DNA of 64,000 bases from Amphiscolops sp. MND2022 (lineage: Eukaryota): positions 64,606,001-64,670,000 of the forward strand of contig OZ076409.1 in assembly GCA_964187785.1 (NCBI GenBank), in the 5' to 3' direction. Of the stretch, positions 1 to 19,800 are shown one piece after another. The translations under genes and the position numbers were made by a program. Below the pieces are notes generated by a model. It made no database searches. It saw nothing but the letters and a program-made list of their open reading frames with translations, and was not told where the DNA came from. The stretch's first letter is position 1. Every line of letters starts with the position of its first letter.

Positions 1-15
1 ATGGCTTGAAGTTCC

Positions 16-676
16 TTGCCAATCACAAAAAATTTATTGTTAGATTCAGTGGCAAGGTGTTGGATGTTATCAGAGATGGAAGAAGTCATCGCAAACATCC
101 GGTTAATGGCATCCGCATTTTCTTCACTCTGGCAAGTACCAAAAATGCCAGAGAGACCACAAGAGCCAGAGCCCATGGAAACGCCAGTTCCAAAAACGCC
201 AATGGCTCCAACCGCAACCGCAGCTAAGGGAAGAGCACGAGGAACACGGCTTGAGGGTGGAGACGGAGGCGGTAACGAAAGGAACCTGGCAACTTCCGGG
301 TGGAGGTGGGCTAACGAAGCATCAGAGGCGTTGACTTCTTTGTGAATTCTGCCCTGAGCCAGTGGGTGTCGAAGCCTCTAGTGCTGGTGTTCGTGAAGTT
401 CAAGTAACAATTGTACGTGGGCATGTCCCACATAGAATGAAGCGCCGTCAATATACGAGCTAAATCAGCTTTGAGACTCACAGAAAATTGAGGAAAGGGC
501 AACAAAAACTGGACGTTAATAAACTTCTCTGCCATGAGTATTTTACGGTCTTCATGAAAGATAATCCCTTTCTTCAGGGGGCCATCAGAATCGTCAAATT
601 CCGAAATGGGCTAGCAAAGAAATATGAACGAATTTGCTGTAAGAAGTGGTATGATCACAAAGAACGTCAGGAATGA
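16..676 (+). pseudogene. Degraded coding region of unknown family (first unit of the antisense cassette; probably begins left of the window)
   Basis: The Pro/Glu-rich ORF 16-345 overlaps a second frame that reads about 155 codons with only two stops (QPQLREEHEEHGLRV...HQRR*LLCEFCPEP...QYTS*ISFETHRKLRKGQQKLDVNKLLCHEYF...ERQE*). GC is higher than in the flanks. Confidence 0.35.
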
Positions 677-953: not shown

Positions 954-1286
954 ATGAATTGTCCTTCGACAAAATTCGAAGAATTTGTTCTCTGGTGTTG
1001 TGCCGAGGGCACGGATGCGTCAAGAGGGGGGCGCCTCCTCTCTTTCAGCAAAGAGCCCCGGCCCGAGTGTAAGCAGTCTCTGCCCGCAGAGACTGGAACT
1101 TCGGAAGTCAAGACAGTGGCAGTCATTGTCGGAGTCGGAGTGATGGTGTTGATCACCCTGTTTCTTGGTTTTTGTTGCCGCACATGGCAGAAAAAGAAAG
1201 AAGAAAAGGAGCTAAGGAGAGCGACAAGAGAAAAATTGAAAAAAGAAAGGAGAAAGCCAGAAGGCAAGAAAAGATGGAAAAAATAA
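954..1286 (+). CDS. 110-aa single-pass membrane protein: Cys-containing N-terminus, TM helix, juxtamembrane CC, polybasic tail (FAST-like architecture)
   Basis: ATG-initiated ORF; hydrophobic VAVIVGVGVMVLITLFLGF is followed by CC and a K/R-rich tail (WQKKKEEKELRRATREKLKKERRK...). Confidence 0.55.
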   Translation: MNCPSTKFEEFVLWCCAEGTDASRGGRLLSFSKEPRPECKQSLPAETGTSEVKTVAVIVGVGVMVLITLFLGFCCRTWQKKKEEKELRRATREKLKKERRKPEGKKRWKK

Positions 1287-1814
1287 AGAAGAAAACGTAT
1301 TTGGAAACTACAGTCTAAAAACAGAAAAGGAGAAGTAAACAACGCACAGTAGAAGTGAAGAGTGAGAGTTAGATAATGTCGTACTATGCGGTGGCAGTCG
1401 TCCAGTATTATTCATGTTGAAGCATATTTAAAATCAACAGAGTCTGTCAGTCGTACATTTTAAAACTACAAGAAAAGCCAAAAAAACTGGTGTAAATTTG
1501 AGTGTGTTAGTTGTATAGATTAGTTGTCTGGTGGAAGTCAAAAAAAGACAAAAAAACAACAACAAAAAAGGAAAAGAAAAAGAAAAAAAACGTTGGCTGG
1601 AAGTCGACTTGAAAAAAAAAAGAAAAAAATCAAGATAGTGGAAGAAAAGAAAAAAAATGTTTGTGCGTTGAAGAGTCTTTTTCCGTAATTTGAGTCGAAT
1701 GTTGAGTGAAGAGGAGTCTGTCGGGTAGTAGTTCGAGCAAGATGTTGAATTGAAGTTGGAGAGAGAAAAGGAAATTCAGATAATTCAAAGTGTATTGTTG
1801 CGTTTCAGAGTACC

Positions 1815-2484
1815 ATGGAGCGATTTTTGCGAGAAGCCATCACGAGATATCTGACAGAAGGCACTTTAGATGAAACAGTGCTGGATTCCAGAGATAGGCG
1901 TGAGGCTTTCAAAAAGAACTGCAGGAACATGAAGTTCGAGAGAGGCGTGCTGTTACAAAGGGCGGAGGAATGACTTCTTGCCAATTCCAACACCGGAGCA
2001 AGTGGATAATTTACTCTATAAAATCCACATCAAGAACTATAAAGAAGGAGAAAGTGGTATTGGGAAGAAGCATTATCGGGGCCTGCAGCTACATGTGGAG
2101 GCACTGTCAAATGCTGGGTGGGCCTTTCCGATTGGTATGGGAGGACTGAAAGCAGTTGCGGAAGAGTAAGTGCATTTATTCAAAGATAAAAACTTATAGT
2201 AACAAAAGGGAAAAATTTTTTTTTGTTTTTTTTGTAAAAGAAAATGAAATAAGGAATGGTGTATATGGTTATCAGGTTTCTCAGGAATTGTCAGGAATGC
2301 TACTTCGCGAGTGAAGAAGGGAGGAAAGTACAGAGGTATTTGAGTTTCGTTGGAGCGGCGGATCGAACTCTGTAGTCAGTTCGATTATACCTGTGTATGG
2401 GAACCTCTATCATCTTCACGAAGTGGAGAAGTTCCTGTCATTCTCGAAGAACCAGGACGCAAAGAACCTTTGGGGGTCCTTGCG
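1815..2484 (+). pseudogene. 3'-truncated copy 1 of the HHCC-OTU gene (exons 1-2 and part of exon 3; 2-nt deletion in exon 1)
   Basis: Same sequence as 3162-3829, but GTGCTGTTAC replaces GTGCTGTGTTAC. It is cut by the repeat junction before the OTU Cys motif. Confidence 0.75.
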
Positions 2485-3161
2485 CATGGCAGAAAAAGAA
2501 AGAAGAAGAAAAGGAGCTAAGGAGAGCGACAAGAGAAAAATTGAAAAGAGAAAGGAGAAAGCCAGAAGGCAAGAAAAGATGGAAAAAATAAAGAAAAAAA
2601 GAAAACGGAGAAAAAGTCAAAGGTGCCAAAAACAGTGAAAAAGTCGTATTTGGAAACTACAGTCTAAAAACAGAAACGGAGAAGTAAACAACGCACAGTA
2701 GAAGTGAAGAGTGAGAGTTAGATAATGTCGTACTATGCGGTTGCAGTCGTCCAGTATTATTCATGTTAAAGCATATTTAAAGTCAACAGAGTCTGTCAGT
2801 CGTACATTTTAAAACTACAAGAAAAGCCAAAAAAACTGGTGTAAATTTGAGTGTGTTAGTTGTATAGATTAGTTGTCTGGTGGAAGTCAAAAAAAGACAA
2901 AAAAAACAACAACAAAAAAGGAAAAGAAAAAGAGAAAAAACGTTGGCTGGAAGTCGACTTGAAAAAAAAGAAAAAAATCAAGATAGTGGAAGAAAAGAAA
3001 AAAATGTTTGTGCGTTGAAGAGTCTTTTTCCGTAATTTGAGTCGAATGTTGAGTGAAGAGGAGTCTGACGGGTAGTAGTTCGAGCAAGATGTTGAATTGA
3101 AGTTGGAGAGAGAAAAGGAAATTCAGATAATTCAAAGTGTATTGTTGCGTTTCAGAGTACC

Positions 3162-3829
3162 ATGGAGCGATTTTTGCGAGAAGCCATCACGAGATATCTG
3201 ACAGAAGGCACTTTAGATGAAACAGTGCTGGATTCCAGAGATAAGCGTGAGGCTTTCAAAAAGAACTGCAGGAACATGAAGTTCGAGAGAGGCGTGCTGT
3301 GTTACAAAGGGCGGAGGAATGACTTCTTGCCAATTCCAACACCGGAGCAAGTGGATAATTTACTCTATAAAATCCACATCAAGAACTATAAAGAAGGAGA
3401 AAGTGGTATTGGGAAGAAGCATTATCGGGGCCTGCAGCTACATGTGGAGGCACTGTCAAATGCTGGGTGGGCCTTTCCGATTGGTATGGGAGGACTGAAA
3501 GCAGTTGCGGAAGAGTAAGTGCATTTATTCAAAGATAAAAACTTATTTTATAGTAACAAAAGGGAAAAATTTTTTTTTGTAAAAGAAAATGAAAGAAGGA
3601 ATGGTGTATATGGTTATCAGGTTTCTCAGGAATTGTCAGGAATGCTACTTCGCGAGTGAAGAAGGGAGGAAAGTACAGAGGTATTTGAGTTTCGTTGGAG
3701 CGGCGGATCGAACTCTGTAGTCAGTTCGATTATACCTGTGTATGGGAACCTCTATCATCTTCACGAAGTGGAGAAGTTCCTGTCATTCTCGAAGAACCAG
3801 GACGCAAAGAACCTTTGGGGGTCCTTGCG
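3162..3829 (+). pseudogene. 3'-truncated copy 2 of the HHCC-OTU gene (intact exon 1 at 3162-3514, exon 2, part of exon 3)
   Basis: The 118-aa ORF ends in a GTAAGT donor. Splicing to CAG|GTTTCTCAGG yields ...VAEEFLRNCQEC, which completes the HHCC motif. Confidence 0.75.
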
Positions 3830-4509
3830 CATGGCAGAAAAAGAAAGAAGAAGAAAAGGAGCTAAGGAGAGCGACAAGAGAAAAATTGAAAAGAGAAAGG
3901 AGAAAGCCAGAAGGCAAGAAAAGATGGAAAAAATAAAGAAAAAAAGAAAACGGAGAAAAAGTCAAAGGTGCCAAAAACAGTGAAAAAGTCGTATTTGGAA
4001 ACTACAGTCTAAAAACAGAAACGGAGAAGTAAACAACGCACAGTAGAAGTGAAGAGTGAGAGTTAGATAATGTCGTACTATGCGGTTGCAGTCGTCCAGT
4101 ATTATTCATGTTAAAGCATATTTAAAGTCAACAGAGTCTGTCAGTCGTACATTTTAAAACTACAAAAAAAGCCAAAAAAACTGGTGTAAATTTGAGTGTG
4201 TTAGTTGTATAGATTAGTTGTCTGGTGGAAGTCAAAAAAAAGACAAAAAAAACAACAACAAAAAAGGAAAAGAAAAAGAGAAAAAACGTTGGCTGGAAGT
4301 CGACTTGAAAAAAAAGAAAAAAAAATCAAGATAGTGGAAGAAAAGAAAAAAATGTTTGTGCGTTGAAGAGTCTTTTTCCGTACTTTGAGTCGAATGTTGA
4401 GTGAAGAGGAGTCTGACGGGTAGTAGTTCGAGCAAGATGTTGAATTGAAGTTGGAGAGAGAAAAGGAAATTCAGATAATTCAAAGTGTATTGTTGCGTTT
4501 CAGAGTACC

Positions 4510-5767
4510 ATGGAGCGATTTTTGCGAGAAGCCATCACGAGATATCTGACAGAAGGCACTTTAGATGAAACAGTGCTGGATTCGAGATAAGCGTGAGGCT
4601 TTCAAAAAGAACTGCAGGAACATGAAGTTCGAGAGAGGCGTGCTGTGTTACAAAGGGCGGAGGAATGACTTCTTGCCAATTCCAACACCGGAGCAAGTGG
4701 ATAATTTACTCTATAAAATCCATATCAACAACTATAAAGAAGGAGAAAGTGGTATTGGGAAGAAGCATTATCGGGGCCTGCAGCTACATGTGGAGGCACT
4801 GTCAAATGCTGGGTGGGCCTTTCCGATTGGTATGGGAGGACTGAAAGCAGTTGCGGAAGAGTAAGTGCATTTATTCAAAGATAAAAACTTATTTCATCGT
4901 AACAAAAGGGAAAAATTTTTTTCTTTTTTGTAAAAGAAAATGAAATAAGGAATGGTGTATATGGTTATCAGGTTTCTCAGGAATTGTCAGGAATGCTACT
5001 TCGCGAGTGAAGAAGGGAGGAAAGTACAGAGGTATTTGAGTTTCGTTGGAGCGGCGGATCGAACTCTGTAGTCAGTTCGATTATAACTGTGTATGGGAAC
5101 CTCTATCATCTCCACGAAGTGGAGAAGTTCCTGTCATTCTCGAAGAACCAGGACGCAAAGAACCTTTGGGGGTCCTTGCGGAGGTCGGAGGAGAATGCTT
5201 CTTCTCGAGCGTATACTATTTGCTCTGTGGGAGAAAATCTGGTGAGAGAATTGAGAATAGATGAAATGAGAAAAGAAAAAAAACAAAGGTAATCTGACAG
5301 ATGAATATTTTACATAGATCGAAAGAATGCGACGGCAAGTCGTAAGTGCAAGGCTCTACGCGTGGCTGCAACAAAGGTGATGCAGACGGTGGAGTTCAAG
5401 GATTATTGCAGGGAATCCCTTGGCATGGCACCCAACGACTTTATGGCTCAAGAGTGTGCGAAAGTGACGGCGAGCATCTCTGAGGCGGCCGTAAGTACCT
5501 GAAAATGGGCGCTAGAAGGAGCCAAGCGTTGTAAGGGGGGTGAGCATTCATTCATAATTTTAGATTCTAGCAACAGCATGGGTGTTACAAACGGACCTGC
5601 AAGTGTACTGGCAATATTGGAACTTGGGCGGGTGGATCCGGTACAAATACGGACCGAAAAGTTCCGGTACAGGGGCTAGCTTTCTGTGCCACGCCATCCA
5701 GGGCGGCGAACGGTTCCGGACCCGCTTCCACTGCGAGCCGTTGCCCCATTTTCCTGAGCCAGAGTGA
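4510..5767 (+). CDS. 5-exon gene: GIN/Ginger-type integrase HHCC zinc-binding domain fused to an OTU-like cysteine protease (about 319 aa if the 2-nt deletion near 4583 is repaired)
   Basis: Exons 4510-4860, 4972-5031, 5072-5241, 5318-5490 and 5564-5767 are all GT-AG with matching phases (intron 2 could alternatively be 5024-5075, also in frame). HHCC: LLYKIH...KHYRG...WAFP...EFLRNCQEC. OTU: EVGGECFFSSVYYLLCG...ALR...EAAILATAWVLQTDLQVY...FHCEPL. Confidence 0.75.
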
Positions 5768-6706
5768 GTAAACTTGAAAATTTACAGAGAATCCGAGAGA
5801 TTATTGCTGTTTCTAGAAAAATTGGCAAAAAATTAACTTTATAAAAGGTTGAAGACACCTGTGAGGGTGCGGAGCCCTGCTAGAGAACCGTGGGAAGAAG
5901 AGGAAGCTATGGGAGCATGCGGGACGAGCGCTTCAAGCGGATAAATGTAAGTAAAGATCATCTGTGTGGAAAAAAATCCAAAAAATAGTTAAAATATATA
6001 CGAAAAAGAGGTTGTAAAGTAAGAAAACAGTCAAAAAAATTAGAAAAAGGTATGGCGCGGACAGCTAGGATCCGTGAGAAGCCTCTAGAGGGGTTTAGGA
6101 CCCATTCCAAAGACCTGGGAGAGCAAAAAATAGATTTTTCGAAAAAATTGATATTTCCATAATATGGTCGAAAAGTGACCCAGAAAAATTTTTTTTTCAA
6201 TTTTTTCCGGATTTTTTGGGCTTAATCCAAAGTTTGGGCGAAAAAATGTCGGTCACCACTAGTTTTAGGGCAAAATTCGAAAAATTCGAAATTTGGGTCT
6301 ATTTAGGTAGTATACAGAAAAAGTGGTAATTTTGCAAAGAAAAGGTCCCATAAATAGTAGGAAGGGAAGGGTCGGGTGGATCGGAATATGAACCAGGATA
6401 ACGAGGGGAATCTGCAGGGCAAGTTTCAGGAGCAAAAAGTGCTCAGAAAGAAAAAAAAATCAATTGTTTGCTCAAAATAGGGTGAAAATGGAGATCGATG
6501 GATAGGAAAAATGAGGAAAATGGTGAAGAAAAGCAATTTCTCTGGACCCTAAACGGGCCAAAAGGGCTAAATAGGCGGCTAGAAAGGTCCTCCCATAGAG
6601 AAAAAGACCAAAGCAGTAGGCGATTAAAAGCAAAAATATGCAAAAAATAGACATAAACGGCGAAATTCTGAAAAAACGCTAAAATAAGGGAAAAGATGAA
6701 AAATGG

Positions 6707-9700
6707 TTATTTCCAGGGTTTAGACTGAAAAAATGAAGTACGACCAGGTTTAGGACGTAAACGTTGTTCACGCGTGCCCGATATAGGGACTGTAGTAACA
6801 GTCGCAGTCGTAGCCGTGGCGGGGGTAGCATCCGCGAAAACATGTTGTGAAGGGGGGAGGCTACGAAGATATGCATGGCAGTCCTGAATGACTGGTGTCG
6901 GAGTGACAGGTTTCGAGGGTGAACGTCGGTTAAACGACTTCTGAGCGAGCACTCGAGAAACTAATGAAGGCTTATACTTAGTAGGGGTAGTGGGGCGCGG
7001 TATACGAGACAGCGAAGATGAAGAATGAGAAGTGGGTGCGCCCGAAGAACAATGATAGCGAGGTAAGTTAGCAAGTTCTTCATTGGTAATAACGCCAGGC
7101 ATACCAGAGTATGGCGACGCAATTTGTGGAGAAGAAGGCGAGGATAATATCGGACGTGCACGATTGATAAGACTTTCAGAAAAACCAGAAAATTAAGAAG
7201 ATGAGCTAAGATCCGAATGATCATATATCTTAGGTCGCGTAGCAGTCGTCGTAACAGGAGGGACGTCCAAAGAGGGAGACAAAATAGGGGTAGGAAGGAT
7301 AGAAGTAGCTATTTCCAGTGGTGGAGCCTGAACGGTAGCTTTAAGAGGGGTTGAATGCATTACAGGTGTGCTTTGTGTGAAAATAGAGGTTGTATGGGCA
7401 AAAGGCAAAGTAGGCTCAGCTACTGTAAAAACATCAAAAGAATCAAACGTCGTATCGGGACTAGGGAAAAAGGAAGGATGAGGTTCAGAAAAGTGTTCCC
7501 TAGGGGGGGTGGAGTCACGAGAAGAGAGTATAAAAGAGTCGTGACGTTGATCGCTCACTGGGATGTTACGAACATCCTGTGTGAGAGAGACCTGACGCGG
7601 CGACGGGGCTTTATGGCAATTAGGCACCAGTCGTGGAAAATCAAAATTCTGAGGTGGGGGTAAAGTGTGAAGCGGCGGTGGCTGTGCCACTGGAAGAGCC
7701 TGCGGAACTACAGGAGGTGGGGAGGAGCCGGTGGAGCAGGTACAACCGGTGGTAATCGGCGGGGTTGATAACAAAAAACTACTGCCGGGGTGTCTGCAAT
7801 CTCATCCTCCGGAGTGAATGTTTTATCCTGTAGGAGGTTTGGTAGCGCGTCATCAAAAACTGAAGGCTCAGATACGCGGCGTGTGGAAGGATCAGGTTGA
7901 AAGTTAGAGGGGTTAATGGTAGAAAGATCTTCCACATTGTATTGAGGCTGAATTGGTCGCAGGCGGATTCTATGTACACATTGTGTGTAATTTAAACCTA
8001 CTTTACGAATGATGTAGTTTGAATGGGTAAGAACCGTTTCTACACAGTATAAGGGCAGCCATTTGGTTAAAGATTTCCCCCATATGGTCATTGACGTTAG
8101 ACAATTTTGGATTCAGAAGTAAACAAAAGTCGTGTTTTTTCAGAGGTAAAGCGGAAGCTTTACGATCATAGAAATGACGGTACTTGTTACATGCCGTGAT
8201 AGTAGCATCACGTGCGTGTGAAAAAACTTCATTCATCTTATCCTGTAGTGTACTCGTAAAGTCGTATTTAGTCTCTAACGTTTGGAGCATTTTATTATTA
8301 AACCGTAGATCAAGTTAAGATGTCGGTTGGCGTCCGTGAAAAAGAAAAGTAGGAGTACATCCGATTGAGGTGTGTTAGGTGGTATTATGTACGAAAACCG
8401 CTAAATCAACATAAGAATGCCAATCACGCTTGGCACGGTTTTCGTAAATTCCCAAATACTGTTTAAGAGACGCATGACAGCGCTCAATCGAACCCATTGT
8501 TTGAGGGTGCTTAACAGTCGCGTACTCCAGTTTGATTTCTAATAACCGCGAAAGTTCTGTCATAACACGGGCTGTAAAGGCAGTGCCCATGTCGGAAAGG
8601 ACAATTTTTGGCAAATACGACGATCTCATGAAAATGTGAAATAACTGCTTTGCCACATTCGGAGCACTTGCATTGCGCAACGAAGTTGCAAAGAGATATT
8701 TGCTAAAAGTATCTTTCGCTGTTAGAATGTGGGTAAAACCTCCTGAATCAGGCAATTTTCCAACTAAATCAATTTGGAGCATTTCACCAGGGAAATACTT
8801 GTCCGTTGCCAGGGATAACAGTGGTGGTTTTAGCGTCGCATGTTTTACTGGTTTAGTTTGAAGACAAGAAGAGCAATTTTTTACAATGTGAGTTAAAAAT
8901 TCAACAAAGTTCGGAAAGTAGAAATGTTTTCTAAAAAGTTCTGCCGTTTTCGCAATTCCTGGATGACCTGCATATTTGCTATTGTGTACTCGATAAAGTA
9001 ATTCCTCACGTAAGTGAGTGGGGACAACATACTGACGTATGAAGTCACGACCATTGTCGCTGAAAAACTTACGATAGAGTACACCGTTATGGTTTTCTAA
9101 GCGAGCAAAATGCTTTAGGTACTTGCGAAGTTCAGTATTCATGTATGGCGAAGGCGATGGTGGTCCATTCGCGATCCAGGCAAGAACTAATTTAATGTTC
9201 GTATCTTTTTGTTGTTCAAGTTGCAAATTTAAAGGGGTTAGTCGATCTGACATCGAGTTAGTCTAAGTGATCTAAAGGGTTGAAGGCATGCAATGCATTT
9301 AGTGATGGAAGAGAGGTTTTAAGGTCCTCTGAGGACATGAAAATTTCGCAGTCAGCTTTTAGCAAGTTTACCGAGTTATCAGGGACTTGCATTCACATGT
9401 TCAAATGGACATCAGCCACAGGAATTTTAGAATTAAATTTCAACTCAAGTTCCGTGTGCGGCTGGAAATGAATGCGGGACAGGTAATCAGCTGCCGCATT
9501 TGCTTTACCAGGAATGTGTCCTAGCAAAAAATTGAAATTGAGTACATGGTCTACGCAAGTCCAAAGACTCGAGGGAATGGTTTTGGCTTGAAAAAACCTA
9601 GTGAGGCTTTTATTGTCAGTAAGGACTAAAACTGGTTTAGTGGTGCCCCAAAGTATGTGGGCAAAAAAGTCAAAGGCAAAATGGACAGCTAGAAACTCTT

Positions 9701-11988
9701 TTGCATAAATAGAAAGCTTCAAGTAAGTGGGCGTGAAAATTTTAGAACCAAAAGAAACAGGAACGTACGTTTTGTACTGTTTTCCCGATTGATCCGTAGC
9801 ATAGTCTTCAATGAGTAGCACATAACCGGCAGCGTAAAAGCTAGCATCGGTCGAACTCACATATTGTGCGTCTGCTTCAGGCAATTTCAAAGCCAGTTGG
9901 CATGCCTGTTCTAAGTCTTTTCGCAAAGTAGCTATACACTTGTGATGTTCTTCGGTTAGTACTATATCATTTTCTTTTCGTAAAAGTTGGTAGAAAGGTA
10001 GCAACTATTCTCCAAGTTTCGGTATAAAAGAACGAAAATATTGGAAGAATCCAATAAATCGTCTTATTTGTTTTACAGTTTTCGGTACTTTCAGTGTTGA
10101 CAAAAATTCAGTGACTTTAGTTTTATTCGGTAGCACTCCTTCACTAGTTATTGTGTTCCCCAAAAATGTCATTTCTTTCAAGCCAAATTCACATTTGCCA
10201 GGTGTGAATTTAAGACCTGTTTTCTCTACACACTTGAAAATTGCTTCTAAATTAGTTGCAAATTCTTCAAACGTAGCGGCAGCAGTGCCTAAATCATCTA
10301 CATACTGAAAGCACTGGTCGGCAACAATACAAGGGTAGAGGTATTTGCGCATAAAAGAACTAAAGGCGCTAACTGAGCGACTCAGTCCTTGTGCTAAGCG
10401 TAAATATGCAAAAGTCCTTGAAAGAAAATTGAAAGCAAGCAGTTGCACAGACAAAGTATCTGCCATTTGTAAGACATGATATGCTTGGCTACAGTCTAGT
10501 TTGGCAAAGTACTTCTTTCCTGCAAGATGTGAATTCACATCGGCCAAAGTAGCTATCGGAAAATTGTGATTATCATAATCATGCCTTATTAAATGGTTAA
10601 TTCGTCGCAGATCTACTAATATTCGTAATTTTCCAGATGGTTTACGGAGGGCAAAAATGGGACTGGAGTATTTCGAGTAAGTCAAAGTTGTTATCACTCC
10701 CCAATATTGTAATAAAGCCAATTCCACTAAAACTTCGTCTCGATAGTGGATAGGGGTTGGCGGACCCTGTGTATACATAGGCTTGTCATTTTCAGGGGAC
10801 AGCTTGACTTTAAACTCTTCGTTTGCGCCAATATCAAGACGATGTCGTGCAAAAATATGATATTATTTTAACAAAAGAGCTTCAATCTGTTGTTTCTGCT
10901 CTTGATTGAAAACAGGGTTTTCCCATGGAAACTGAGCAAGAAATGATTCTCGATCCGCAAGGTTCTTCGCAGGATTTAATTTTTCCCGTTTTTTCAGTGC
11001 AACAATTTCGTCATAAATACGTTTTTGTATGCCCGTCAATGTTTCTGGATTAGGGCAATTCTCAGGTGTTGGAAACCAAAATTCATCGTTGGACGGATAA
11101 ACTTTGTGTTCCGAATCAGCAATAGGCCATTTATGCTCTTATTGAGATGGTCAGTCAAAATTTCAGGATTTACAGGTTGTAAATACTGTGCCTGAGAAGC
11201 TGTTAAAATCGTGACTTCAGCAACTTGAGCATTTTTCTGTACTGTTACTTGATGAGGCAAAAGATTTAGTATCCCTAAGGCAACTTGTTTCTTCGCGTCA
11301 AATTTTACAATGGCACTGGTTACACAAAGACCAGTTTGTTTTTCAAACCGTGGGTTAGGTTTCACGATTGCTACTGTTCCTTCAGGGAAGGATTCTGTAG
11401 AGAGAATACATTGGATTATTTCGCATGTGTTCGGTTTAACTGAGAGAGTTTGGGCAGCATGTAAGAAAAGATTTTTCTTAGTAGTTAGTGAACTGATTTT
11501 GCCACCTTTATGGACTCGTTCAGTTAGTTGTATGGTCATGTTCGGCAATTTTAGCGTTCGGGTTTTCGGATGAATCAAGATATCGTGTTTTTCAAAAAAC
11601 GGAAGACCTAAAATGGTCTGGTTCATCGTTTCCATGAGGATGAAAGTTTCGGTGAAGTTTCGTTCGCTATTTTGAAAGAGGCTTGAAAAGTTCCATGTGT
11701 GGTTATAGAGGCACCAGTGGCAACTTTTACTGTTGAAGGTTGAGGGTTATAGTTGGTTATACTTTTTGGACCTAAATGTTGAAGTTTATTAAAAATGGAA
11801 AGAGGCATGGCGCTTGAGAAAGCACCAGTATCTATAAGGGCTTTAACAGGAAAAGAAAAGTGAAGTGGTACAGAAAATAAAGAAGTGCGAGGCTTTGAGG
11901 ATAGTACGTTAATGAAGTTAGAAGGAGTACAGTTAGGAATATTAGATATATTAGAAGTATGGGCATTGTGTGGCTTACCTAGTTTTTT
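6707..11988 (-). pseudogene. pol: Gypsy pol (protease, RT, RNase H, integrase, long P/S/T-rich tail), disrupted
   Basis: ALIDTGA protease; RT LDCSQAY, LAQG, YVDD; RNase H TDAS, KEFLA, TDNK, AADYLSR; integrase H..GHPG..CSSC, QIDLVG, SDMG, IER. Split over ORFs by stops and frameshifts. Confidence 0.93.
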
Positions 11989-13230
11989 TGGTAGATGTTA
12001 GGCTGGTTGGCATCATATTGGGGTGTCCATGATTGTGGCATTTGGTTCATGGATATCATCTTGGTTTGTTGTTGCTGAAACTGCTGTGTGGGCACAAACT
12101 GGGCATTGGAGAATTGATTATATGGCAAGACTGGTGGGTAGGTTGGTTGTGGGCGAAACCAACATTGTGAGATCAGATGGCCAAATTTGTTGCAGTAGTT
12201 GCAGTACTTTTGTCCAGATTGGGCGAAGTATGGGTTGTTGTTGTTGTTGTTTTGCCAATTTTGTCCACGTGGTTGCCAATTTGGGTTTCGAGGTCGAAAG
12301 TTCTGGTTGTTATTGTTTTTCCAATTTTGTTGATTATTTTTCCAATTCTGCTGATTATTGTTATTGTTACGCCATTGTTGCTGATTATTTCCTCGAGGAC
12401 CAAAATTTTTGTTCCAGTTCTGACGATTTTTGTTGTTATTGTTGTTCCTGTTATTGTTGTTGTTTTGGGTATTGTTTTGGGTAGCTGCAAGTTGATTGAT
12501 TGTAGGTTGAAGAGTTTTATTTAACTCTTGAAGTTCTGTTGAGAGTTTTCCAGTTTCTTCTTTCAGTGTGTCCTGGGCTTTGGACAACTCGTGTATGCCA
12601 GTCAGTAGTTGTTTTGTTGAAAAGTTACTGACCTCGTTGAATGCTGTATCGTCGTCCTCAGGGTAGAGGCGGTCAACGATAAGACGGCTGGAAACCTTGG
12701 TGCATAGTTCATCTATTGCCATATCTTCGGGTTGAGTCATTAGGAAACGCTTCATCTTGATGGGCATTCCGTTGATGAATGCTTCACGAACTCTGCGAGT
12801 TCGCTCTTGAGCACGATTTTCAGCATTTACTGCAGGTCTTCCTCCTGCTGCAGCTCGGGCTTGAATGTCCGGGTACGCTTCGAGTGCCAGTCTTTGCAGC
12901 TCAGTGAGAAAGTCTTGTGGACTTTCGTCAGAGACTTTCATTTTGCGTGAATTGAAGAATTTTTTGCAACTGTATTCTTTGATCGTTTTGGTAACGATTT
13001 CGTAGGGCAGCTACGGCGGCGTCGTAGTCGTTTCGCACAGCAGCTTCTTGTTGGTCAAAGAAAGTTAGGGCACCTCCTTTAAGATGAAGGTGTAGGTACC
13101 GATGACGTTGGTCATTGGGAATGCCTGCAACTTGAGTGCAGCTCTCAAGTTGGCGGAGAAATTCGTCAAAGTTTTCTTTTTCGGTACCCTTGAAGGGTTG
13201 AAGATTTACAAAAGGTTGTATGGCAGCCAT
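11979..13230 (-). pseudogene. gag: Gypsy gag with N/Q-rich region and CCHC knuckle (one frameshift near 12950)
   Basis: ORFs 12928-13230 and 11979-12941; PFKG...F, ESPQDFLTELQRLA, REAFING, CNYCNKFGHLISQC. Confidence 0.9.
11982..11988 (-). promoter_or_regulatory. -1 ribosomal frameshift heptamer A AAA AAC at the gag/pol junction
   Basis: Gag ends CAA AAA AAC TAG. The -1 frame is open from here through LGKPHN...ALIDTGA. Confidence 0.8.
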
Positions 13231-13393
13231 AATTGTAGAATTTGAAAGTAGATTTTTAAGAAGAAATATTTATTGTGAAGATTTAGTATTTCAGGTGAGT
13301 TTTTTTACAGTACTTGCTGTTTCAGAGAGAAGAGATTTGAGCTGGTGGTGGATGGAAGAAAGAAAGTTCTAGCGAGCAAATTTGTGGAGAATA

Positions 13394-13406
13394 ACTCCTG
13401 TCACCA
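13394..13406 (-). promoter_or_regulatory. Primer binding site, tRNA-Leu-like
   Basis: TGGTGACAGGAGT lies immediately after the LTR end. It matches the recalled Leu PBS TGGTGTCAGGAGT at 12 of 13 positions. Confidence 0.65.
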
Positions 13407-13791
13407 TGTCAGTGACTGTGGTCGAGCGGCTGATCTGATTTTGTTTTAGAGACATTTTAGTTTTGTAGAACTTGTTTTATTCGAATGCTTAATTGGGTAA
13501 CTTCTCCTTTGCTCAATTCTCTAACTTTTAGAAAGAATACAATTTTGGGTAGAAAGATTTGTTTTATTGTAGCGATAAAGAAAGTTAGATTATGATGAGA
13601 TTAATTTAATTTAGTACAGTTTAGTTAGTACAACAAGTTCTCGGTCTGTCCGTTTTACTGATCCGCTCGTCCACCTTCTTCTTTGGTCCAGCGTGTTGAG
13701 TTGTGATTGGCTGGCATTGTGATTGGTTGTCATCTGTACTTCAACGAAATTTTGTTGTTAATGTACACTTGTCCATGGCGTTGTCATGACA
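13407..13791 (-). repeat. 5' LTR of the Gypsy element (385 bp)
   Basis: Minus strand begins TGTCATGACA and ends CACTGACA abutting the PBS; it contains AATAAA. The outer boundary is inferred from the terminal inverted repeat only. Confidence 0.7.
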
Positions 13792-14632
13792 AAATGATTT
13801 TTCAAACACCAATTTACAGTAGCTGATTTACTTACAGAACAAATAACGACAAAATTCCTTCGAAATGCCCACTTGGAGTGAATTAATGAGAAAATCGGCC
13901 TCTTCTGGACTAATTTTTCGGTAACAAAAAGTTTGCAAAAACTTTAATGAAAGTCTTCCAACAATTCCACAAAAGGAAAAAACGAAGATCAGATGTTACA
14001 GTGGAAACATTCCGACACACTTTTAAAGTAACTCACATAATCTGAGTTTTCAAAAATGCTTAAGAGTAAGAGTTTTCGGGAAAAAAATCATGTAAAAGTT
14101 CAGGAATCCAGTATAAAAAATTCAACGCAAACTTCCGCGAAAAGACATCCTCAGTGATTTTGAATGAAAGCATCCACATGTTGGACTACGCCATAATTTC
14201 AAACCGCAAAAAAATCTAATGACAGTTGATTTCTCTGAGGAAACATTTCAAATCGCAATAACTTTTTACATGATGAATTGAAACAACAGTCTGGAAGACA
14301 GCTGTCCGTAACAAAACATTCTTGTGACATACTTTGTATCTTTGATTCAGACTTTGGCTTCAGCACTTTTTCCGAAAACGCCCTCCTTGAAAGTTTACAC
14401 CACTAAATGATCACAAAAAGCTAATTTTCAACTTTTACTCCGTGAAAATATATTGGCGGAATTAGAACTGTTTTTGGCTGTTCACTTTTCAAGAAAGCGT
14501 TTTCATGGAGAGCTTTAACTATAATAGTTGAAGAGCGTTGTCAAAGCTACAAAAACGATCGGAAAAGGTTTTCTTTTAGACAAGTAGGTTTTGAGAAAAT
14601 GTGTAAAACGGTTCGAAACATTCCCTCGAAAC

Positions 14633-15179
14633 AAACAAGACGGGAATGTCTCAAGTCGGCGCCCACTTCTCGAACTACCGTCTCAATTGTCTCCGCTTTA
14701 GCAAAACGCAATACAGTCAGGATGTAACGTCAAAAATTCGAATAGTGTTGAAAAAATATATATTGGTGGACAGATACTGAGAAAACTTAACTTCAGACGG
14801 AAAATGAGGATTTTGAAACAGTCTCATAGTGCCGAAAAATCTGAAAGGGTGGACCCTTTGGGATTTTTTAACATCCATTTTGTTGCATAATATCAAAGAA
14901 GTGAAGGGATACATTATAAAATTTTCACAAAAAGTCTCAATGCCGAAAAAAAAATCGAAAGGAGGACCATTTAGTCTCGTCCGGTTTTGTATGTTACGTT
15001 AAGAAAGTAAAAAAGGGTGACCCTTTGCAATAACTTAGATGCGTTTCCCAGATACTCATTTAGTTGAACAAATTGAACAAAAATTTCGTCGCACTCGAGT
15101 GTCCTAAAGAAAAACAAAAAAACCTAAAAGACTGTGATAGTCGGGCTCGTTTATTTTATAAAAACGCCGACTAAAAAAA
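14633..15179 (+). mobile_element. Short non-autonomous HINE/Helentron-like element
   Basis: Head AAACAAGACGGGAA..AAGTCGGCGC; tail TAGTCG..CGCCGACTAAAAA (sub-terminal inverted repeat plus stem-loop); internal AAGGGGGACCCTTT-type motifs shared with many copies. Confidence 0.65.
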
Positions 15180-16810
15180 CAATCTCCTGAAAATACCATG
15201 CGATATCCCTTGTGAAACTTCGAGACAGTAGTAGTTCTACGAAAGTTAGTTCTATCACTGATCCATGAATGACTTTTTTCATGATACGAATATTGAGCTC
15301 TTCAACGTTTTGGTATACTAGTGTATTTTCGATGAAAAATTTGTACAGAAAACAAAATCGCAACAATTAGCTCTTCTCAAATCAATGTGAAGGAAGTAAT
15401 TTTTCGATTCGGACCAATGAGGGAAATCAAGTCAAAACAGACAAAAAAATCCTGCATTCATCGCCACTTTTGAGTCATCGTTTTTCGACATTGCAAGGAA
15501 AACGAGAAAATCTTCGGCACTAAAAAATTCCAAGCATAAATGTTTTCCGAGGGAAATCTTTTTTTTTAAATTCCTAGAGAAATGATTGCAAATTTCGGTA
15601 TTTGATGTTGATATGACAACAAAACTGTTATGAAATTAAAAATCAAAAGCTTTCGACTGAGATATCTATTCAAGAGGAATTGAGTGGAACAATGAAAAGA
15701 CGATTTTCAAAATCGTGATCGTTTTCAGTATTTCCGATCAAGTATTCAGCGAAATTAAACCAAGTTCCACCTAAATCATTTATAAAGGCGATTACGTTTC
15801 TATTGGGACCGATACCAGAGAAATTGAGTGAGGACGCACATTGTCAAAGTTCTACAAATATTGGAAAATTTGATCGCTCCTCAACACCAATAGCAAAAAG
15901 CAAAAATCGGCTCCACTCAATAACTCCAAGTATAATTATCTTATGACCCGAATTCTGTGCCCTATATATAAAGCTCCTACGAAAAACTTAATTTTTTGGT
16001 CGTGAGAGCTGCGATATCTAGTACTTCTTCGGAAAAACTTCCACGGTCGTAAGAGCGGGTTATCTTATGATAGTATTTGAAAATTGGAAAAGATTAAGTA
16101 GGAATATTTTGGATATTTGTAATTTGTATACACTGCTTCTTCTAAATATTCTCGATCAAGTTGAGAAGCATAGCGGTCACAGACCTTGTGAACTGAAACA
16201 ATCTTAGAATTGACACAACTAAAACAAAAGATTGGGTATTTATAATTATATTTCGCATAATTCAATCTATATATACATAGAAACTACAATAGGGTGAATT
16301 TTGGTGGGATTTAATGAAAAATAGGCAAAAACGAAAAACAGAAAACATGAGCACCTTCAATTGATATTTTTATTCCATGAAAAATATTAAAATTCAACGA
16401 ATGACCTTGAATAACATTTAGGAATTGAACAAAAAGAAGACAAACCTAACATTTCATCAGTGTACACACAAATTGTCACAACGGGTGAATTAGGATTACA
16501 AATTTATTAGACACTGTTCAAAGTGTCTTGAATCGAAAATGAGAGACGTAATTGCAGAAGAAATTCATTTTCGGAATGACATTCAGGAAACTATTTGATC
16601 TCCTGTGGTATTCGATTACACGTTGCTTTGATACGATATTCGCTTCCACTTCGGAGCCCAGACGAGTAATCGGAGAACTAAACAGTTATCGACTCCGAGT
16701 ATCAAATCCAAACGCCTCATAACTTTCCAAATCTTGGATTTTTTTGGAAACTGTTGAATAACAAATCTGCCTCGTCAAATTCAACAAACCCACGCCTTCA
16801 GAGTATCTAT

Positions 16811-19800
16811 CTACTTTTTGCGGAATCCGGGCAGTGCAAACCCTGACTTCGCAGTGACGTGGAACTTGGAAATGAGTTGAGAGAAACAAGATACCAGAGA
16901 GTCTCTGTCGTAAAGTGACACTTCAAAATGTAGGGGAACTTTACACGATTGCACCCATTGAGAAATATCGTCCTGAGAGACATGTCGTTGACACTTCTGG
17001 CTGCCATTGACTACTGGGTCTAACCCTGTCTTGTTGATCAAATCAAGTCGGTTGCCGAGAACCATGATAGGAAATGTTGTTTTGGACTGAAACAACAAAT
17101 GAGCATTAACTATCATGAATACATTGAACGTTTCTGGTTTTTTTTTCACTCTTCGCCAGGACTGTCTACCGGCTAAAAATCTATGTCGCTACTATCGCAC
17201 ATAAAAATCTATGTAAAGCGCCTTCTCTGTATTTAAAGTACCAATTTCTCTAAACTTTTCAAAATTTTGTAATTTCAATTAGAAATCGAGAGATTATTTG
17301 CTACAAAAAATTGAAGTTACAAAATTAAAATCACTTCATCCAAAATTTGCAAAACACTTACATCTTTTTTGATTTTGAGGTCAGCGAATAGATTTGTAGC
17401 CAATTGGAATGTGGAAGCGTCAGTCAAACTGTACAAGATAATGACAGCGTCAATATTTACAAACTCTGAGTTGGTGCGTGCGAGAAAGTACTTGGGCACG
17501 TCAGCTAAACTGTTCACTCCGTCCGTGTCAATCAGCCTCACACTGTCCTTCACACTGCTGCCCACTGTGCCTCCGTTGCTGCCACTGCTTCCTGCAACCT
17601 TCGAGGGAGCTTCCGGGATGAACTCAATCTCCAGCTCGTAGAAATCTTCCAAACTCATGCATGGCTCATAAACCTGTCACAAAACGATATCATATCAATA
17701 TATTCGTGTTTGACTCAGCTACACGTGTCGAGAGTTGAGTATCAACATTTCTCTATCCACTGCGTTTTTATTAAGTTGACTTCATAATTTGTATATATTT
17801 TCGGGACCTGACGATGATACAGATTATCGGAACATGTTGTGAATTAATGTTTCTCATCAATATCAATATTGCATATGGAAGCTTACGTTGAACTCACGAC
17901 AAAACTAGCCATAAAACTCATGTTATTATAAAAATTTGCAAGCCAAGAACGGCATAAGTCCGCGCCCCGCTCAAGCAAAACTACTTCAAAGTGTCAAGGA
18001 GCCTCTTTTGAAAAACTTCTCAATTTTGCAACGCCCAAGAAGAAACCTACTTGGCCAAAAAAGTTTCTCACCAGAAAAACAAAAAACCAAAGCGTTCTTT
18101 CCGGTTTCATCACCAGAAACATCAAAGAACCAACGCGATAACCCCGTGGGGAAGCCGAAGGGGGACCTTTGGTGAAATGAAGAAATTTTCCTTTTGCAAT
18201 ATCCATTTTTTAAAAAGTCTCACAGTTCCAAAAAAACACTCAAATCCTATTTTAATCGGAATATGTGTCAAAATTTGAATGGGTAGACCCTTCCGATCAA
18301 TTTGAATTTCGTAGAAATTTAGAATTTTATAGTCACTACGACCAGATTGAACAAGACGAGAACGTCTAAAGTCGGCGCTATATCTAAGGCTCAAAAAGCG
18401 CAAAACATTTTTGGAAAAAAACTTGAAATTTTTGAAAATTTTTCTCTTTCAGAAAATGTCGCACAGTGCCGAAAAAAAATCAAAAGGGGACCCTTTAGTC
18501 TCGGCCGGTTTTGTAGGTTACGTTAAAAAAGTAAAAACTGAAAGGAGGGACCCTTTGCACTAAGTTTGCCTTGGCCCCTTAGGTGGTTTCAGGATTGTTT
18601 CTAAAAAGTGGACCGATCATCGTGAGGATTGTAGTCTGAAGAAACAAGACGAGAACGTCTAAAGTCGGCGCCATATCTAAGGCTCAAAAAGCGCAAAACA
18701 TTTTTTTTGAAAAAAACTTGTAAATTTTGAAAAAAAAGTGTTTCAAAAAAAGACGCAGTGCCGAAAAAAATCCAAAGGGGGGACCCTTTAGGCACGTCCG
18801 GTTTTGTAGGTTTCCTTGAAAAAGTGAAAAAATGAAAAGGGGACCCTTTGGACTAAGTCTACCTTGGCCGGACTTGGCCTCAGGTGCTCAGGTGGTTTCA
18901 GGATTGTTCCTAAAAAGTGGACCGATCAGTGTGAGGATTGTAGTCTGAAGGAAAAACAAGCCGGGAACGGCCCAAGTCGGCGCCATATCTAAGGCTCAAA
19001 AACAGCAAAAGGACTTCCAAGTATTCTCTTCTACGGTACCGGAAAAACCCAAAAGTTGAACCGAATTGGCACACCAGAGGCGACACTTTGAAATTTTTTA
19101 TCCATTCTGTCGCAAATCATCAAAAAAAATTGGAGAGCACTTTTGGTGAAAAAAAATTTTTGAAAAAAAGTCTCGACCCTTTAGTCTCGTCCGGTTTTGT
19201 AGGTTACGTTAAAAAAGTAAAAAATGAAAAGGGGGACCCTTTGCACTAAGTTTGCCTTGGCCTTAGTGGTTTCAGGAGTTCCTCTAAAAAGTGGACCGAT
19301 CAGTTTGAGGTCTGTGGTCTGAAGAAAAAAGGTCAGTGCTATAGTCAGGCATTTTTCCTTAAAAGGAAAACGCGCCGACTCGACTAAAAACAAGACAGAA
19401 AGTAATATTCTAATCTTTCTAACTAAATCACCTCCTCCCGTGTCCAAATTGAATGTTTATATTTTTGAAATAAATGCAATGTTCTTAAATGAATGCTCTT
19501 ATTTTTACAACATTCAATTAAATAAACTTTCCTTTCCTTTCCTAAATCAGCCCTTTTTTCAAGAAAATGTGACCAGATATCAGGATAGTAAGTATATTTT
19601 CTAGATCACTACTTTACTGCAGGGATCACTGAAACATAAAACACCCGATGGCAAACGTTTAGAATTTTCGGCACTGCTCGATCTTTTCTGTGGCCAATTT
19701 GACCAAATAGTACCACTTGGAGTTTTCGTGATAATTTGTATCTGAAAGCAAGCCAAAAATTCTGGACAATATTGGATCCTTAATATAAATATAAACAACT

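Follow-up and report, generated by a model that had tools for sequence, protein, structure and literature searches.

A DDE-less gene joining an integrase-type zinc domain to an OTU-family protease domain is cargo of Gypsy, Polinton and BEL/Pao elements

The window analysed here, a 64,000-nt stretch of contig OZ076409.1 of Amphiscolops sp. MND2022, contains a gene that joins an integrase-type zinc domain (HHCC) to an OTU-family protease domain, the uniting splicing being predicted from the comparison of genomic copies. This HHCC-OTU cargo is used by three classes of mobile element, namely env-like Gypsy elements, which have the spliced form, a Polinton, in which the introns are the same, and BEL/Pao elements, whose homologue is intronless. 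Sequence affinities support its being a derivative of Ginger1 without the DDE core, and not itself a Ginger1 transposase. We propose, at about an even chance, that the product is a predicted active OTU deubiquitinase, tethered to DNA or chromatin via its integrase-type N-terminus and countering host control. A first-pass annotation of the window had already seen an accessory protein in this locus, a reading that is supported, although it had missed the antisense cargo context, the carriage by Polinton and BEL/Pao elements and the frameshifted state of the window copy.

Exon structure, copies and selection

Comparison of genomic copies places the start ATG at 4510 and predicts five exons, with intron phases 2/1/0/2, encoding about 364 aa:

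4510..4860, + strand, exon 1: Ginger1/integrase-type N-terminal extension and both His of HHCC; frameshift by a 2-nt deletion near 4583
4861..4971, + strand, intron 1: GT-AG, phase 2
4972..5241, + strand, exon 2: CxxC, pre-OTU helix and OTU catalytic Cys motif; includes 5032-5071; frameshift near 5039
5242..5317, + strand, intron 2: GT-AG, phase 1
5318..5490, + strand, exon 3: helical portion of the OTU domain
5491..5563, + strand, intron 3: GT-AG, phase 0
5564..5763, + strand, exon 4: OTU beta sheet carrying His-x-Glu
5764..5847, + strand, intron 4: phase 2; donor overlapping the stop codon of the first-pass annotation; weaker AAG acceptor in the window copy
5848..5944, + strand, exon 5: conserved 32-codon tail, basic then acidic, ending in W-x5-6-G-A-[VC]-G

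Among 102 loci examined, 58 lacked an open model and 44 had one, of which 33 with standard exon sizes were kept and 11 dropped. The three introns at 4861-4971, 5242-5317 and 5491-5563 retain their GT-AG ends and phases 2/1/0 across these 33 open copies, and intron length ranges from 61 to 137 nt with phases constant. Residues H72, H87, H322 and E324 are kept in all 33, C123 and C194 in 32 and C126 in 31, in a set whose selection for open frames favours conserved residues.

The first-pass annotation had described five exons with GT-AG borders and a 319-aa protein. Three of the four introns, the consistent phases and the H..H..CxxC and OTU-like motifs (HHCC and Cys-His-Glu residues kept in 31-33 of 33 copies) were correctly recognised; its second intron (5032-5071) proved to be coding and exon 5 had been overlooked. 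The counterpart of 5032-5071 is 42 nt long and in frame in 32/33 open copies, has GT..AG ends in only 11/33, all of the window copy's own subfamily, changes with a synonymous bias across copies, and encodes a conserved helix found ahead of Ginger1/Helitron OTU domains. Moreover, the CxxC and the OTU Cys motif share one frame at 59 of 66 scorable loci. The 2-nt deletion that the window copy carries in this segment is the reason why it had been taken for an intron, and five-exon models in which it was forced to be an intron gave inconsistent boundaries outside the window copy's subfamily. The supposed stop at 5765-5767 overlaps the phase-2 donor at 5764, and a four-exon model ending at 5767 was replaced once exon 5 emerged from the copy comparison. 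Exon 5 is conserved in 31 of the 33 copies, including its tail motif R-x-R..W-x5-6-G-A-[VC]-G, shows pS > pN in 8/8 pairs, and has an acceptor AG exactly 1 nt ahead of the first full codon in 30/31 copies. As the donor that precedes it overlaps a stop codon, intron retention would yield a clean shorter isoform.

The window copy itself has lost its frame through 2-nt deletions near 4583 and near 5039, copy-specific losses that could be sequencing error. It is the sole full gene copy inside a local triplication, whose two partial copies consist of exon 1 and 211 nt of exon 2:

1296..5180, + strand, local triplication with a unit of ~1.35 kb; partial gene copies at 1815-2484 and 3162-3829

The gene has 44 DNA matches in the same genome, and exon 1 alone has at least 145 (150 of 211 candidates scored). 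Word-based homologue searches yielded no match for exon 1 and two ab initio ENA proteins (88%) for exon 4. Of 13 pairs compared over exons 1-4, eight have a dN/dS of 0.06-0.10 and one of 0.37, and in the other four dS is saturated. In the closer pairs gaps pile up in introns and are almost absent from exons, while HHCC and Cys194/His322/Glu324 stay conserved even where identity falls to about 30%. The CxxC continues into the pre-OTU helix inside one exon in every one of the 33 open copies, with no DDE core and no GPY/F, and no DDE exon lies between HHCC and OTU at any locus examined. A functionless remnant of a local deletion, or a chance splice model, is hardly credible in this light: the two frameshifts of the window copy inside a triplication and the many loci without an open model would fit it, but the same exon layout, phases and DDE-less join recur across subfamilies (26-100% identity) and in a second element class, under strong purifying selection. 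We accordingly rejected it; both the dN/dS comparison and the search for a DDE exon, proposed in the first-pass annotation, speak for a retained architecture.

Domain homologies and relation to Ginger1

An OTU profile built from 93 unrelated Ginger/Helitron-type OTU segments matched 8 of 8 representatives of the HHCC-OTU family at 26-48 bits (reversed and shuffled controls, at most 1.7 bits), and hhalign recovered the relationship at 98% (E 1e-14), with Cys194, His322 and Glu324, the acid/amide two after His, at the aligned catalytic positions. The OTU call of the first-pass annotation is upheld by this custom profile and by the intronless BEL/Pao homologue, which passes the Pfam OTU cut-off (PF02338), but not by single exons of the family, with which Pfam and PDB profile searches returned no OTU; exons 3-4 gave no usable match in the ESM Atlas.

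The predicted fold of the BEL/Pao homologue (pLDDT 90) comprises an integrase N-terminus and an OTU domain. The latter matches OTUD1 (Z 13.2, rmsd 3.3, 129 aligned), OTUD3 and nairovirus vOTU (Z 11.6-13.2 for the three), with which it shares the fold and the Cys..His-x-acid order; unlike them, at 9-20% identity, it is coupled to an integrase-type targeting domain. Its N-terminus matches PFV (Z 7.2), Ty3 (Z 6.6) and MLV (Z 4.2). The N-terminal 117 residues of the HHCC-OTU protein likewise fold confidently, with a middling best match to PFV integrase (Z 5.4, rmsd 3.8, 85 aligned) and an ESM Atlas assignment to Integrase_H2C2 (0.92); this region is mildly basic (K+R 16-22 vs D+E 12-18). The C-terminal part of the same partial model has a pLDDT <50, and the triad geometry is predicted solely by alignment to the folded BEL/Pao homologue.

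The OTU motifs of the HHCC-OTU family are deviant: the counterpart of GDGNC has Gly for Asp and Glu for Asn, the Trp and the second Glu of the Ginger/Helitron W..xE helix motif are missing, and a loop is inserted ahead of the catalytic His. In other OTUs the Asp/Asn of GDGNC and the W..xE helix residues help hold the ubiquitin tail, and hence the substrate may not be ubiquitin. The product might then be an active cysteine protease directed at a ubiquitin-like modifier, a host restriction factor or element proteins, possibly its own G-A-[VC]-G tail, a reading that we hold to be rather improbable. It would account for an invariant triad alongside altered ubiquitin-tail motifs and for a small-residue tail motif kept in 31/33 copies, and there is precedent in polyprotein processing by viral OTUs and in the Polinton polymerase vOTU, proposed to release the terminal protein (PMC11161782, in its accessible text). 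Against it, Gypsy and BEL/Pao elements already possess aspartic proteases, and the BEL/Pao homologue is without this tail, with one of its subfamilies retaining the canonical GDGNC.

The deviant motifs could alternatively denote a catalytically inactive scaffold or a dominant-negative decoy limiting transposition, an option raised in the first-pass annotation, and non-enzymatic DDE-less or DDE-dead Ginger derivatives such as Imagin are on record (PMC12863088, in its accessible text). We regard this as quite unlikely: Cys194 is kept in 32/33 and His322 and Glu324 in 33/33 copies, even at about 30% identity, and young multi-copy carriers retain the gene. Because the catalytic residues are the most conserved, the dominant-negative role is the least likely of those the annotation had listed.

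With respect to origin, a search of 1.84 billion representatives with a profile of the BEL/Pao family retrieved Ginger1-type transposases (H2C2+rve+OTU), Helitron OTUs and five DDE-less proteins of 286-318 aa, two of the five with both H2C2 and OTU Pfam matches. Within the set preselected by this search, the best outside match of the profile of open copies was a Ginger1 transposase with the H2C2+rve+OTU architecture (P0039; 43.8 bits), aligned in both halves. This match in both halves supports the earlier proposal of a DDE-less Ginger1 derivative kept as an accessory protein, and together with the conserved HHCC it identifies a Ginger1-type N-terminus with an H2C2 finger. The BEL/Pao homologue has a clear YPYY motif and the HHCC-OTU family a degenerate one, and the N-terminus has no sequence match to the integrases of the Gypsy carrier and of BEL/Pao. 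Ginger1 transposases are known to bear a C-terminal OTU (Bao et al., 2010; PMC2836005, in its accessible text). The HHCC-OTU gene has in common with them introns and the same order of a YPYY-type N-terminal extension, H2C2 finger, pre-OTU helix and OTU, but in all DDE-less forms ~12-15 residues separate the CxxC from the pre-OTU motif, as against about 390 in Ginger1. It also differs in its strongly derived OTU motifs and in being cargo of LTR elements and a Polinton: it does not lie between the TIRs of a cut-and-paste element of its own, nor is it such an element's transposase. The same N-terminal module, again DDE-less, adjoins THAP domains in other proteins (P0111, P0144).

A DDE-bearing Ginger1 donor was not found in the genome by a weak search that scored 66 of 26,376 candidates, among which Gypsy integrases were dominant. 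The corresponding search from the OTU side returned the BEL/Pao homologue and long Helitron-like ORFs. The latter are ORFs of 2200-2850 aa with an OTU domain (L146, L152, L153, L248, L249), termed Helitron-like by analogy. Two further OTU ORFs (L144, L155) lie on small contigs (C1676, C1381) of a composition unlike that of the chromosomes and possibly belong to a co-sequenced organism. In trees the HHCC-OTU family sits on a very long branch, the clade with the BEL/Pao homologue having support of 60/17. The trees neither establish nor reject this clade, a grouping with all DDE-less forms (p-AU 0.45) or one with Ginger1 (p-AU 0.44), and are therefore compatible with one or with several losses of the DDE core. 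They likewise do not decide the direction of transfer between Gypsy and Polinton (p-AU 0.385).

The carrier elements

The window gene lies within a Gypsy LTR element of ~14 kb, antisense to its core genes and between pol and an env-like ORF:

1..667, - strand, env-like ORF, 5' part: continues left of the window; broken here; named env by anatomy alone
954..1286, + strand, second antisense cargo gene: small single-pass membrane protein with a CC-P-x-G-T ectodomain motif, conserved across subfamilies
6707..11997, - strand, pol: protease, weak dUTPase-like domain, RT, RNase H, integrase and Pro/Ser-rich tail, in several broken ORFs
11979..13269, - strand, gag of the carrier
13389..13406, - strand, PBS-like sequence, common to 10/11 Gypsy elements inspected
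13407..13791, - strand, 5' LTR, TG..CA

The 3' LTR lies 2.4-2.8 kb left of the window; the LTR pair is 99.2% identical and flanked by a 5-bp target-site duplication (TSD). TG..CA LTRs, TSD, PBS and the order PR-RT-RH-IN assign the carrier to Ty3/Gypsy. Its pol integrase (8375-9262) has an HHCC and DDE core of its own, and the dUTPase-like domain (11036-11746, - strand) between protease and RT is a weak match (Pfam E 0.0075-0.018); its placement is as described for rotifer and planarian Gypsy-like elements. The env-like ORF, open at 766 aa in another copy (L023:6320-8617, - strand), has no Pfam or PDB match; by eye it shows a signal-peptide-like start, a basic site followed by a hydrophobic stretch, and a C-terminal TM segment. 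Of 17 wide stretches, 16 have it upstream of the HHCC-OTU gene, on the other strand, and 14 have gag/pol downstream; the Polinton is the single stretch that lacks env. Identical LTR pairs in several carriers lead us to conclude that the family is young.

Both antisense genes face away from the env-like ORF. All six close subfamilies inspected have a short intron-like stretch before the membrane-protein gene, and in 6/8 representatives an AG acceptor lies directly before the HHCC-OTU ATG, which together suggest that the two genes might be expressed by alternative splicing from one internal promoter. Introns antisense to genomic RNA escape removal from it, and so a retroelement can retain those of the HHCC-OTU gene. 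The env-like ORF apparently has its own internal promoter, back-to-back with the antisense genes, and the start of the membrane protein encoded at 954-1286 is signal-peptide-like in the most distant subfamily. An 8.5-kb non-autonomous derivative (L069-L070, C5:39.41M; LTRs 99.7% identical) has lost pol and retains gag, the env-like ORF, the TM gene and the HHCC-OTU gene. Outside the element, window positions 14630-19330 hold a dispersed family of 70-90-bp repeats, frequent at other loci too.

A subfamily at about 50% identity to the Gypsy-borne gene, with the same introns, is carried by a 17-25-kb Polinton/Maverick, 410 bp from the element end and on the strand opposite the core genes. All seven copies checked are bounded by TIRs of ~141 bp, which start AGTAGT, and by 6-bp TSDs. 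The element encodes an rve integrase and an A32 ATPase, with no polB or capsid match in Pfam or PHROGs; a 1512-aa ORF with polB-like motifs is the putative polymerase, and the capsid is likewise a candidate named by its motifs. In L263:1882-7086 and related copies, 2-8 tandem units of ~700 bp separate the cargo gene from the polymerase-like ORF.

The third form, uncovered when the genome was searched with the Pfam OTU profile, is an intronless ORF of ~295 aa with the same layout and 106 matches; it lies in antisense orientation near the 3' end of BEL/Pao elements 7 kb long. These elements are classified by Peptidase_A17, DUF1759, DUF5641 and rve between LTRs; Peptidase_A17 and DUF5641 were present in 2/2 scanned ORFs, and direct repeats of at least 95% identity flank gene and pol in 10 of 12 stretches. 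Its alignment with the HHCC-OTU family spans 245 columns (hhalign 97%, against 0.5% for the reversed control and no more than 1.1% for 20 shuffles). Close pairs of the homologue, with few changes, look near neutral (dN/dS 0.45-0.78). A metagenome scan found one contig with a BEL-type homologue, whose carrier is not recognisable within its 3.7 kb. In another record (L261:2-1354, - strand) a BEL-type homologue stands back-to-back with a SET-domain-like ORF (by eye).

Proposed function and relation to known systems

We envisage that loss of the DDE core turned a Ginger1-type transposase into an accessory gene, which three unrelated element classes would have come to carry on the strand opposite their core genes. 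Its transcription would start at an internal promoter directed away from env, and its introns, being antisense to genomic RNA, would survive reverse transcription. The N-terminal module would bind DNA or chromatin and the OTU protease would act on ubiquitin, the presumable purpose being counter-defence by removal of host ubiquitin marks that silence the element or degrade its machinery. That carriers with unrelated integrases share the gene favours a generic target, i.e., DNA or chromatin.

Alternatively, the HHCC module could dock on the carrier's integrase or intasome and bring along the OTU, which would guard the integrase from proteasomal turnover or reset ubiquitin signals during insertion repair, re-creating in trans what Ginger1 has as an integrase-OTU fusion. 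In integrases the N-terminal domain makes trans contacts with catalytic cores, and all three carriers have rve-type integrases. Both domains are also fused in Ginger1, for whose OTU Bao et al. suggest a role in post-transposition repair (PMC2836005). We nonetheless judge such an integration helper to be unlikely, as the three integrases are very distant from one another, the accessory N-terminus resembles neither the Gypsy nor the BEL/Pao integrase, and the same gene at about 50% identity serves both Polinton and Gypsy.

Extending the preferred reading of a chromatin-tethered deubiquitinase, we tentatively suggest, at somewhat less than an even chance, that Ginger1 without its DDE core became a free-standing counter-defence gene, traded among env-bearing Gypsy, BEL/Pao and Polinton elements in an animal lineage, and that the spliced form crossed between a retroelement and a DNA virus-like element without losing its introns. 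To our knowledge, few counter-defence proteins of animal transposons are known. Purifying selection in three unrelated element classes would point to a common host barrier acting via ubiquitin or a similar modifier, and the HHCC-OTU protein would offer a single small enzyme with which to locate it. Why OTU and Ulp1 proteases recur in transposons, a question put by Bao et al., likewise becomes accessible to experiment. Beyond function, these systems would be a case of a gene with introns being exchanged by a retroelement and a Polinton, and would show how four introns can be accommodated in a retroelement when their gene lies antisense.

Transposon OTUs, antisense ORFs, shared cargo ORFs and DDE-dead Ginger derivatives are each already known separately. 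In the literature searched, which lay outside Repbase Reports, most subscription journals and supplements, we found no description of a DDE-less H2C2-OTU cargo gene, nor, within the same scope, of Gypsy, BEL/Pao and Polinton elements sharing such a gene. The nearest precedent for sharing is in bdelloid rotifers, where extra ORFs are common to unrelated retroelements (Rodriguez et al., 2017; PMC5408684). There too, as the accessible text has it, one enzymatic cargo ORF occurs in several element classes of one genome, and the carriers are Gypsy-like with a dUTPase and env-like or small TM ORFs (PMC5408684). The rotifer cargo described there is, however, a GDSL esterase or a DEDDy exonuclease (PMC5408684), as opposed to a spliced, antisense, transposase-derived protease, and the sharing seen here spans retroelements and a DNA virus-like Polinton. 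As regards placement, antisense ORFs between pol and the 3' LTR are reported for the plant elements Retand, Grande and RIRE2 and for HBZ of HTLV-1 (PMC11963269), likewise conserved genes downstream of pol and thought to be regulatory. Their products, in the accessible part of that account, are TRP28 or bZIP proteins with no known enzyme (PMC11963269), whereas the HHCC-OTU gene, placed between pol and env, contains four introns and encodes a protease triad. OTU domains also occur in Helentrons and in Polinton pPolB (PMC6431247, PMC11161782, PMC8502044, as accessible). With these the HHCC-OTU family has in common a predicted OTU fold, and with the Helentron versions also the pre-OTU helix; the Helentron and pPolB OTUs are described as domains inside a replication protein (same sources), in contrast to a separate gene with an integrase zinc domain that is additional to the Polinton core. 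The DDE-less H2C2+OTU proteins of 286-318 aa from other sequence sets suggest that transposon anti-silencing effectors of this kind form a wider family, as yet undescribed.
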